Assembly (NCBI GenBank): GCA_964490215.1
Contig: CAZBAM010000003.1
Coordinates: 1,489-65,488, forward strand
DNA length: 64,000 bases
Direction of reading: 5' to 3'
Source of the DNA: Candidatus Micrarchaeota archaeon
GTDB lineage: Archaea; Micrarchaeota; Micrarchaeia; Anstonellales; Bilamarchaeaceae
Made by a program: the position numbers and the translations under genes
The notes under the pieces: generated by a model
Databases searched by the model: none
Seen by the model: only the letters and a program-made list of their open reading frames with translations
What the model was told of the DNA's origin: nothing
Shown: positions 32,184-34,025 of the stretch, one piece after another
How the letters are laid out: the number at the start of each line of letters is the position of its first letter
How positions within the stretch are numbered: the first letter of the stretch is position 1

Positions 32184-32432
32184 TCATCCGTATACTGTTT
32201 CCCGGTTGCCGATTTTCAGGACTTCCAGGGTTTGCGCCTTCTCGTTTATGTCAATTATTATCCGGAGCTTCCCCACCCTGAGCCGGTAGGCATTGAGTCC
32301 CGTCAGCCGCCTCGCATACCTGTGGGGCTGGACGGATATCCTTTCAAGAACCCCCAGGACCCGTTCCTGCATCTCGCCCGGCAGGCCGAGAAATTCCTTC
32401 TCTGCGGATTTGGCGAAGACGGCCCTATACAT
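32184..32432 (-). CDS. relE: RelE/ParE-family toxin
   Basis: Y...F.KSAEKEF..L, YRLRVGKLRII, IGNRETVY. Confidence 0.88.
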   Translation of the reverse strand: MYRAVFAKSAEKEFLGLPGEMQERVLGVLERISVQPHRYARRLTGLNAYRLRVGKLRIIIDINEKAQTLEVLKIGNRETVYG

Positions 32433-32646
32433 GCTTCATCCTCGCCTTCAGTTCAGCCAGTGTCACGACTTTGCCTTCCCTGACCTCGGCCCGCGCTTTT
32501 TCTATGGCCTTTACGAACTCCGGGTTCAGGGCGAGATGGTCCTCTACCAGGTCTTCTATGACCTCCTCGTAGCTCTCGCCGTCGCTTATCTTGATGGTAT
32601 CCAGCTTCTTCTTGAGGACGTCGGATATCTTAATAGTGGTATACAT
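32425..32646 (-). CDS. Antitoxin partner of RelE
   Basis: TTIKIS..K..L, ESYEEVI.DL, EVREGKVVTL; overlaps toxin start. Confidence 0.8.
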   Translation of the reverse strand: MYTTIKISDVLKKKLDTIKISDGESYEEVIEDLVEDHLALNPEFVKAIEKARAEVREGKVVTLAELKARMKHV

Positions 32647-32678: not shown

Positions 32679-33647
32679 TTATTGCACGAGGCTGATGGCG
32701 TTGAACATGAGCCCGATTACCACGAACGAAAAGGCCAGTATCGCTATGAAGATTCCGATCAGCTTCGGTTTCAGCACCTTCCGCAGTATTATCATCTCCG
32801 GGAGCGACAGCCCGGTCACGCTCATCATGAACGCCAGCGCGGTCCCCAGCGCCATGCCCTTTCCCATCAGCGCCTGGACGACCGGTATGGTTCCAACTGC
32901 GTTGGAATAGAGCGGGATGCCGACGAGCACCGCGACTGGCACCGCGAGCGGATTATCCGCGCCTGCGACCGAAGCGAGGAAATCCTCCGGCGCGTACCCG
33001 TGGATGAGCGCACCGATGGCTATGGCAAGGACGATGTAAGGCCCGACATTCCAGACGATGTTCCCGGTCTGCCCTTTGGCGAATGCGAGCCGCTCGTCCC
33101 ACGTCCATTTCTTCTCCTTCACTCTGCCGGCCCTGCCCTTGTAGACGAAGTCCTCCACCTCGCCCTCCAGCTTCAGCCGCCCGATTATGACGCCGCCAAC
33201 TACCGCGATGGCGAGGCCTGCGCCCACGTAAAGCGCGGCCACCTTCCAGCCGAATAGCGCGAGCAGCAGCGCAATCGCCGTTTCGTTGATGAGCGGCGCG
33301 GAAATGAGGAACGAGAACGTTATGCCGAGCGGGATGCCTGACTCCACGAAAGCTATGAAAAGCGGCGCCGCCGAGCAGGAACAGAACGGCGTCGGCACGC
33401 CCAACAGCGCGGCAAGGACGTTTCCCGCGCCCTCCTTCCTGCCGCCCAGCAGCTTCCTTATCCTCTGCGGCGTGACGAACGTGCGCACGACGCCGATGAG
33501 AAAGACCATCACGGCAAGGAGCAGCACGACCTTTATGGTGTCGTATATGAAGAACGCCAGCGCCTCGGTTCCGGCTTCGCCTGCCTTCATGCCGAAGCTG
33601 CCGAGCAGCCAGTATGCGAAATCCTCAAGAACTCCCATTCCAATCAT
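32679..33647 (-). CDS. Permease (DUF318/ArsP-like)
   Basis: TPFCSCSAAP, FLISAPLINE, GIPLYSN, FMMSVTGLSLPEMIIL. Confidence 0.88.
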   Translation of the reverse strand: MIGMGVLEDFAYWLLGSFGMKAGEAGTEALAFFIYDTIKVVLLLAVMVFLIGVVRTFVTPQRIRKLLGGRKEGAGNVLAALLGVPTPFCSCSAAPLFIAFVESGIPLGITFSFLISAPLINETAIALLLALFGWKVAALYVGAGLAIAVVGGVIIGRLKLEGEVEDFVYKGRAGRVKEKKWTWDERLAFAKGQTGNIVWNVGPYIVLAIAIGALIHGYAPEDFLASVAGADNPLAVPVAVLVGIPLYSNAVGTIPVVQALMGKGMALGTALAFMMSVTGLSLPEMIILRKVLKPKLIGIFIAILAFSFVVIGLMFNAISLVQ

Positions 33648-33715
33648 TCCATGCCAGCGATGGGCAGGACTGACAGTGTCGTTTGTCCATTAAAAAGATT
33701 GGTGAAGGCCTGCGC

Positions 33716-33829
33716 TCAAAGCTCGCCTACGCGCCGCTTCATCTTCCTCTTGAGCCGCTTGCGCTTCTTCTTCACCCATTTCCAGCGCATGCGGTTCTTC
33801 TTTTTCCATTTCCGCGGTTTGGAACCCAT
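33716..33829 (-). CDS. rpl41e: 50S ribosomal protein eL41 (missed by ORF track)
   Basis: MGSKPRKWKKKNRMRWKWVKKKRKRLKRKMKRRVGEL, 37 aa, GAGGT RBS. Confidence 0.9.
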   Translation of the reverse strand: MGSKPRKWKKKNRMRWKWVKKKRKRLKRKMKRRVGEL

Positions 33830-33831
33830 AA

Positions 33832-33930
33832 TCATGACCTCCTGACGACCTCACCGGAAATGGAAAGACACGGCCCAGCGGGCCGGGCAGATTTCCATTT
33901 CCGCGGCTTGCTACCCATAATCATGACCTC
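33832..33930 (-). promoter_or_regulatory. Leader/uORF duplicating the rpl41e RBS and first 9 codons, with hairpin
   Basis: 39-nt direct repeat 33803-33841 vs 33892-33930 (36/39 identical); 28-aa uORF 33918-33832; 12-nt inverted arm 33855-33866. Confidence 0.7.
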
Positions 33931-34025
33931 TGCAAATCTCAGCATGAGCAATTGACGACATACGATTCGCGGATTTGATAATTAATGCTTCGGCTTAAAT
34001 AGCTTTCGCCTTCCGGCCGGTTTTT

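Follow-up and report, generated by a model that had tools for sequence, protein, structure and literature searches.

A duplicated gene start and a shared antisense arm upstream of rpl41e: a probable translational control element in part of the Micrarchaeota

A stretch of 64,000 nt from contig CAZBAM010000003.1 (GenBank assembly GCA_964490215.1) of a Candidatus Micrarchaeota archaeon, called the window below, was analysed around rpl41e, the gene of ribosomal protein eL41/eS32. Reading along the minus strand, a promoter-like box is followed by a 5' untranslated region (5' UTR) of ~50 nt, the Shine-Dalgarno (SD)-like motif AGAGGT, a decoy copy of the gene start opening with ATGATTATG, a stem-loop, an antisense arm, the SD motif GGAGGT, a second ATGATTATG and the 37-codon open reading frame (ORF) of the gene (Table 1). 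Comparison with related genomes suggests that this leader is probably a new translational control element of eL41/eS32.

Table 1. Features of the rpl41e locus in the window; H1 and H2 are two alternative helices that share the antisense arm
Feature	Position	Strand	Details
Putative archaeal promoter, B recognition element (BRE)/TATA-like	33994..34008	(-)	cgaaagCTATTTAAG; upstream of the decoy
SD-like site of the decoy upstream ORF (uORF)	33926..33931	(-)	AGAGGT, 7 nt before ATG 33918
Decoy: copy of the gene's SD, ATGATTATG and codons 1-9	33892..33930	(-)	39 nt, 36/39 identical to 33803-33841
uORF	33832..33918	(-)	28 codons + TGA, product MGSKPRKWKSARPAGPCLSISGEVVRRS; spans whole hairpin and arm
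Segment 1: decoy codons 6-9	33892..33903	(-)	CGGAAATGGAAA; 5' strand of H1; repeat search, folds, alignment
Inner G+C stem-loop	33871..33885	(-)	CGGCCC-GCT-GGGCCG; extends H1; folding, stem scan
Segment 2: antisense arm	33855..33866	(-)	TTTCCATTTCCG; 12/12 complementary to segments 1 and 3
SD of the real gene	33837..33842	(-)	GGAGGT, 7 nt before ATG 33829
Second repeat copy: real SD, start and codons 1-9	33803..33841	(-)	Repeat search
rpl41e (eL41/eS32) coding sequence	33716..33829	(-)	37 codons + stop, product MGSKPRKWKKKNRMRWKWVKKKRKRLKRKMKRRVGEL; PDB sequence match, homologues, synteny
Segment 3: real-gene codons 6-9	33803..33814	(-)	+16 to +27; 3' strand of H2; repeat search, folds, alignment

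The identity of the gene was examined by phmmer against the PDB, which matched residues 3-35 of the protein to L41e/eS32 of Thermococcus and Pyrococcus ribosomes with E-values of 1e-6 to 2e-6 (chains 9fny_A2, 6skf_Bk and 6sw9_0). Homologue searches collected 60 genome loci and 19 proteins; the query of the protein search was the 39-aa ORF with five in-frame upstream residues that do not belong to the protein. The database homologues are 84-100% identical over the mature part and come from Micrarchaeota or Bilamarchaeaceae, which are DPANN archaea, wherever the source names the organism. The gene order is OTCase-S10-Mut7C-L41e-...-L1-L10(-P1), where Mut7C is a Mut7-C RNase domain protein, and the window shares its neighbourhood (OTCase, S10, Mut7-C, L41e, ..., L1) with the metagenomic relatives L001 and L002 (L numbers are our locus labels). 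By sequence match and conserved synteny the gene is archaeal eL41/eS32, as the initial annotation of the window had it. Because the homologues begin MG[SA]K and the SD spacing suits the second ATG of ATGATTATG, the true start is likely the one at 33829. Profile scans of the 37-aa protein, which is short and of low complexity, and of the uORF peptide returned no Pfam and no NCBIfam match, and an exact sequence look-up found no entry for the window protein.

The two 39-nt copies are spaced 89 nt apart and differ at three bases, AGC/TCC (Ser, 2 nt) and AAG/AAA (Lys), both codon changes being synonymous. They form the sole 39-mer with <=3 mismatches that is repeated at a distance of 40-200 nt within the window, and the arm sequence does not occur there a second time. 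Twenty block shuffles of the window contained no 27-mer (<=2 mismatches) repeated at that distance; the real window likewise has none, so the shuffles are no direct control for the 39-mer. The TGA of the uORF (33834-33832) overlaps the first ATG (33835-33833) of the downstream ATGATTATG, and the stop ends 2 nt ahead of the likely real ATG. The initial annotation had reported the copy of the ribosome-binding site and start, its spacing, the synonymous differences and the 28-aa uORF, and every one of these details was reproduced.

Two perfect 12-nt inverted repeats share the arm at 33855-33866, one reaching to 33892-33903 and the other to 33803-33814, which agrees with the complementarity to codons 6-9 of both copies described earlier (12/12 each). 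In H1, decoy codons 6-9 pair with the arm and the helix stacks on the inner stem. In H2, the arm pairs with codons 6-9 of the real gene and closes a ~40-nt loop that holds the SD and ATG of the real gene (SD2 and ATG2). In six leaders, that of the window and five others introduced below, ViennaRNA predicted energies between -19 and -29 kcal/mol for H1, against -15 to -24 kcal/mol for H2. H1 was predicted to dominate the free leader RNA of five genomes (P 0.67-1.0) and H2 that of L003. When decoy codons 2-12 were forced to be unpaired, mimicking a ribosome, P(H2) was ~0.95 in 5/6. The z-score of the whole window leader is modest, at -2.1. A pairing of two TCATGATTATGGG stretches in the minimum free energy structure was set aside as peculiar to the window and not conserved. 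An archaeal bulge-helix-bulge (BHB) intron was also considered and rejected, as fold inspection revealed no exon-exon helix in any fold (no dedicated BHB search was made); such a helix, marked by two 3-nt bulges 4 bp apart, would need the decoy end GAAAATGGAA to pair with the sequence after codon 9, AAGAAGAAC, if one period were to be spliced out, and both are purine-rich.

Related contigs were obtained by exact protein look-up and from a scan in which each species was represented by one genome. The same architecture was found in five further independent assemblies, namely L002 (a JGI sediment metagenome), L013 (Micrarchaeota Sv348), L003 (Bilamarchaeaceae GCA_038870055.1, in another gene neighbourhood), L015 (Micrarchaeia bin_281) and L024 (Micrarchaeota MEGAHIT-group-1.587). 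An assembly artefact, against which the initial annotation had already argued, is ruled out because the architecture recurs in these five. All share one succession of parts: SD, ATG, nine codons that equal those of the gene or differ synonymously, inner stem, arm antisense to codons 6-9, SD and gene. The geometry is fixed in 6/6, with the arm starting 36-37 nt before the real ATG, its target starting at +16/+17 and a period of 85-89 nt. The full 39-nt repeat including the ribosome-binding site is peculiar to the window; in the other genomes the repeat comprises the ATG and nine codons (26-27 nt), and the duplication as first described, binding site and codons together, holds for the window alone. 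Arm and decoy always occur together, and no arm-only or decoy-only intermediate was present among ~75 L41e loci. A metagenome scan with the pattern AAATGGAAATCTGCNCG was too unspecific, with no L41e gene among the matches listed.

Pairing was counted in a MAFFT alignment of the six leaders (A2). For H1 including the inner stem, 94% of the cells are paired and five pairs have changed on both sides; for H2 the figures are 98.6% and three pairs. The covariation score was reached by 0/500 shuffles for either helix, and helices slid out of register as controls were paired at 27-57% for H1 and 49-67% for H2. RNAalifold, to which no structure was supplied, returned a consensus made up of H2 and the inner stem. 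The window has CGG at codon 6, three genomes have AGA and two have CGA; decoy and gene always agree, and the facing arm triplet reads CCG, TCT or TCG to match, save for TCA in L003, which leaves one mismatch. The inner stem of the window has been rebuilt, reading CGGCCC/GGGCCG against CTCGAAC/GTTCGAG elsewhere, with three pairs changed on both sides. The 5' base of the arm is C where real codon 9 is AAG (L002, L013 and L003) and T where it is AAA, which makes its pair with the third base of that codon CG in three genomes and UA in three. Decoy codon 9 is always AAA, so that in 3/6 this base of the arm does not match the decoy. Because it matches real codon 9 while mismatching the decoy in three genomes, the arm follows the real gene and not the decoy alone. 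The mutually exclusive pairing proposed from the window has therefore gained from the comparison: six genomes share the design, both helices are kept with compensatory changes, RNAalifold selects H2, the predicted energies of the alternative structures are near-equal and masking of the decoy flips the arm.

The decoy bears several signs of translation. An SD-like motif (AGGTG or GAGGT) stands at similar spacing before the decoy ATG in 6/6 leaders, outside the repeat in five, and the ATG, nine codons and open frame are intact in all of them. Eight codon differences between decoy and gene were counted across the genomes, and 8/8 are synonymous; the two-base switch to Ser AGC is the derived state and arose in the decoy, since TCA is found in the relatives. 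Where the two copies have diverged, which is so in two genomes, codons 3-5 differ at 5/6 synonymous sites and codons 6-8 at 0/4 (Fisher p ~0.05, small sample). Leaderless genes vary at codons 6, 7 and 9, with AGG at codon 6 in 9/24 and AAG at codon 7 in 7/24. As codons 6-8 stay matched where leaderless genes vary, the arm seems to constrain both copies. The uORFs of L002, L013, L003, L015 and L024 share the first 9-10 residues, and the frame is not conserved afterwards. Beyond codon 12 the peptide varies and the reading frame shifts between genomes, which indicates that RNA structure and not peptide is conserved there. From these sequence features we infer that the decoy uORF is translated.

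The synonymous differences bear on a further explanation, programmed bypassing, in which ribosomes initiated on the decoy would leave a codon of the repeat and resume at its identical counterpart in the real gene, 85-89 nt downstream, and both starts would yield eL41. It would account for the matching codons, for a hairpin at the potential take-off site, for an SD-like element before the landing site and for the 8/8 synonymous differences, including the two-base Ser switch. Matched codons likewise flank a 60-90 nt gap beginning with a hairpin in phage T4 gene 60 and in the mitochondrial byp elements. Unlike the gene 60 type, the present leader has no stop or obviously slow codon after take-off (codon 10 is UCU or UCG), several Lys codons in the gap would compete for landing, and the gap holds a full SD, an ATG and the copy of codons 1-9, which makes bypassing unnecessary. 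We regard it as extremely improbable.

The uORF reads through the arm in all six leaders and stops at -20, -20, -17, -2, -1 and +11 relative to the real ATG. Termination-reinitiation coupling, proposed initially from the ATGA overlap, is suggested by the window and L015, where the uORF ends 1-2 nt ahead of the real ATG, and by stops within -20 to +11 in 6/6. Conservation does not extend to the overlap itself, which the window has, and the real gene has retained its own strong SD, which leaves coupling as at most one component. A second SD-like motif (GGTGAG or TGTGAGG) lies right after the arm, ~20-25 nt before the real ATG, in the window (33851-33854), L002, L013 and L015; its TGA is the uORF stop in L002 and L013, and ribosomes could pause or stand by there. 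A further pairing is peculiar to the window, where the Ser UCC of the gene can form GGAG:UUCC with the gene's SD and, around the start, UCAU:AUGG (33821-33842 versus 33910-33931). The AGC of the decoy cannot make this pairing, which was not seen in the other five leaders, and through the two-base Ser switch the start regions of the two copies may differ in structure.

Both copies should lie on one mRNA, because the promoter and 5' UTR are placed upstream of the decoy and no suitably placed box was seen between the copies. A transcription start in the spacer, raised in the initial annotation, would have left the leader off the mRNA; 5/6 spacers contain no TATA-like box, and TTTTTAAG in the spacer of L024 was rejected as an internal TATA box, being only ~17 nt from the ATG and too close. 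The upstream position of the promoter is suggested by the leaderless relatives, whose sequence before the single ATG is homologous to that before the decoy. A near-identical box and downstream 5' UTR, caattatcaaatccgcgaatcgt, occur in the leaderless L010, L008, L009, L001, L011 and L188. This promoter-proximal region is conserved with or without the leader (window 33960-34010 (-), L001, L008-L012, L014-L017, L024 and L188-L190), with a TATA-like (C/G)TATTTAAG or TATAAAAA, ATTA ~10 nt on, and then (C/A)CACGAAT or CCGCGAATCG. The 5' UTR there is unusually long, at ~50 nt, and a second control element that is independent of the leader is possible. Sigma-70-like matches on the plus strand only reflect the direct repeat and are irrelevant in an archaeon.

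The hairpin between promoter and gene could also act on transcription. As an attenuator, H1 with its T-rich 3' strand (TTTCCATTT(T)C) would pause or terminate archaeal RNA polymerase, and a ribosome on the decoy would modulate read-through. A simple scan does mark the inner stem plus TGTCTTTCCA as terminator-like. Archaeal termination mainly requires oligo-T runs of >=5, and the runs here are of 3-4, interrupted and within the stem rather than following it. The covariation of the arm with real codon 9 would also be left unexplained, and this reading is highly improbable.

We favour, with a probability of roughly 50%, a conserved cis-acting mRNA leader that acts as a ribosome-operated switch with three segments and two states and tunes eL41 synthesis. 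A single transcript would carry SD, ATG and decoy codons 1-9, the stem-loop, the 10-12-nt antisense arm, and the second SD and ATG with the real gene. During transcription H1 would form first and leave the real start region free. A ribosome initiating on the decoy would melt H1 and release the arm for H2; the same ribosome would pass through the arm, melt H2, terminate within ~20 nt of the real start and could reinitiate at SD2/ATG2. Ribosome traffic or pausing on the decoy would set how often the early codons of the real gene are clamped, which would link the output of eL41 to translational capacity or to the supply of aminoacyl-tRNA. H2 itself may hold back early elongation, lie just out of reach of a ribosome that is initiating, or even offer the start in a loop. 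Whether eL41 synthesis would rise or fall, and by how much, is a matter of inference, and either direction is conceivable.

Among known systems, the leader would work most like the leader-peptide translation attenuation of ermC, cat and cmlA in bacteria. In those systems a short leader ORF with its own ribosome-binding site lies upstream on the mRNA, its ribosome determines by its position which of several mutually exclusive helices is built from three or four segments, and direct repeats arise since two segments must complement one arm; the present leader, with a predicted uORF and two predicted helices that share the arm, would have a similar layout. The leader is nevertheless not a member of the ermC/cat family, because its alternative helix pairs gene codons 6-9 and leaves the SD and ATG unsequestered. 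An added oddity is that the leader ORF copies the first nine codons of the gene, reads through the arm and ends beside the real start. The host is moreover an archaeon and the target a ribosomal protein. No known stalling motif was recognised in the leader ORF.

Ribosomal-protein mRNAs are also controlled by autogenous operators, among them the E. coli ribosomal-protein leaders and that of Methanococcus L1, which is regulated via a site ~30 nt inside its own coding region. Here, excess eL41/eS32, a very basic rRNA-binding peptide, would bind the arm helix or the whole H1 hairpin and block both starts, much as ribosomal proteins act at mRNA sites that resemble rRNA. The likeness lies in a clade-conserved 5' structure positioned to affect initiation; a conserved, covarying hairpin within the early coding region and an arm helix identical in sequence in H1 and H2 would suit such a protein site. 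Binding of eS32 to 16S rRNA through a hook at its N-terminus, in the space between h27, h44 and h45, has been reported (PMC11724365), which counts for an operator as well. Yet the known operators have no duplicated gene start or translatable decoy, and an operator would leave unexplained why a decoy with SD, ATG and synonymous-only divergence persists. Most relatives also have no such site, and we consider autogenous control quite unlikely.

Several points weigh against the ribosome-operated switch. H2 pairs +16..+27 only; SD2 and ATG2 stay in the loop unpaired with the arm, and the predicted accessibility of -14..+15 is not reduced when H2 forms. The arm:gene helix of the initial annotation, said to loop out the binding site and start, does place both in a loop, and it does not systematically lower their predicted accessibility. 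As a consequence, repression by H2, and with it the reading of H2 as an 'off' state, is an assumption; a helix beginning at +16 may lie just beyond a ribosome engaged in initiation. The uORF stop varies in position. Covariation was counted in small numbers and in genomes that share ancestry, the six sequences representing ~4-5 independent lineages, and gene conversion between the repeats together with templated quasi-palindrome correction could mimic part of the covariation without selection. Conservation in relatives, a check named at the outset, extends to the five further assemblies and not to ~30 other Micrarchaeia lineages, which include the sister of every lineage with the leader and can dispense with it. 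When the neighbouring Mut7-C protein was used for a neighbour-joining tree, a leaderless sister stood beside each of three leader-bearing lineages with 100% bootstrap: L010 and L008 beside the window, L014 beside L002 and L013, and L017 beside L015.

The history of the element was examined in the same genomes. The leader is confined to part of one uncultivated clade and is missing from all Hadarchaeota and Thermococci loci examined. The inserts are homologous to one another (TCTGCTCGAACaaGTTCGAGTCyTTCCATTTTC.GTGAG...GAGGT), and spacer identity is 44-76% versus 45-85% for the 5' UTR, divergence outside the paired parts being about equal. Homologous inserts with spacers as diverged as the 5' UTR argue for a single old origin rather than recent spread. 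The homology of the leaderless relatives extends over close pairs: the window has cgaaagMtatttaagccgaagcatYaattatcaaatccgcgaatcgt in common with L010, and L015 has ttaggtgaactcATG in common with L017. As the inserts are homologous and old, repeated loss is likely, and recurrent, precise deletions between the direct repeats would explain it most simply. A mobile element or recent horizontal spread was judged unlikely, as spacer divergence is close to that of the 5' UTR, the grouping of L002 with L013 agrees with the tree of the neighbouring gene and the window holds no other copy.

These data also bear on the possibility that the leader is a relic without function. The 5' end of the gene would long ago have been partly duplicated in tandem, together with an inverted piece from a template switch, and the result would persist by chance, with gene conversion and quasi-palindrome correction keeping the matches. 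The patchy distribution, the leaderless sisters and the ~30 lineages without the leader are in line with a relic; so are the copies that are (nearly) identical in 4/6 genomes, as conversion would yield, and the repeat that in the window extends 12 nt upstream of the ATG. On the other hand, a neutral 60-nt insert between 27-nt direct repeats should vanish fast in small genomes, and the element has been retained despite these flanking repeats while the 5' UTR fell to ~50% identity. The decoy SD is conserved although it lies outside the repeat in 5/6, the geometry is invariant, the inner stem of the window was rebuilt with other G+C-rich sequence and kept its pairing, and a 12-nt inverted repeat is short for conversion. 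A relic is therefore unlikely in our estimate.

Around the gene, the window departs from its syntenic relatives. A predicted permease of the ArsP_1 family (PF03773, E 5e-76; 32679-33647 (-)) sits between L41e and L1, where relatives carry just a small ORF, and this window-specific rearrangement breaks the ribosomal-protein cluster. Also between L41e and L1, at 32184-32646 (-), a ParE-like toxin (PF05016, E 2e-5) overlaps a small antitoxin-type ORF (DUF7557/VapB-like); together they resemble a type II toxin-antitoxin pair, which is absent in L001 and L002. A 90-aa ORF antisense to L41e and its leader (33683-33955 (+)) most likely reflects no more than the absence of stops from the complement of Lys/Arg codons and would then be an artefact.

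The leader also disturbs gene calling. In L002 (3001-3180, P0005) and L003 (3001-3180, P0003, NCBI 'hypothetical protein QW590_00025') 59-aa 'MEICSN...' proteins are annotated, in which L41e was started at the ATG within AAATGGAAA of the decoy, the spacer was read in another frame and the product was fused to L41e (period 86 nt). Because gene callers join part of the leader to the gene in this way, L41e annotation in metagenome-assembled genomes of Micrarchaeia is unreliable.

To our knowledge, few cis-regulatory mRNA leaders have been described in Archaea and none for eL41/eS32. The whole window gave 0 Rfam matches at the gathering threshold, and a full-text literature search on L41e/eL41/eS32 leaders, archaeal ribosomal-protein uORFs and Micrarchaeota found nothing relevant. 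The protein sits at the subunit interface beside the decoding centre. We put forward, tentatively, that the leader may be the first leader-peptide-type attenuator in Archaea, in which a ribosomal-protein gene would sense ribosomes through a translatable duplicate of its start. A ribosome that occupies the decoy, which is rich in Lys, Arg and Trp, or pauses there would shift the arm to the real gene and give eL41/eS32 a feedback on ribosome or charged-tRNA availability, in organisms that, as far as we know, are without a ppGpp-type stringent response. The apparent direct-repeat deletions supply natural pairs with and without the leader, and, if true, the switch would be a compact and easily engineered coupling of gene output to ribosome traffic.

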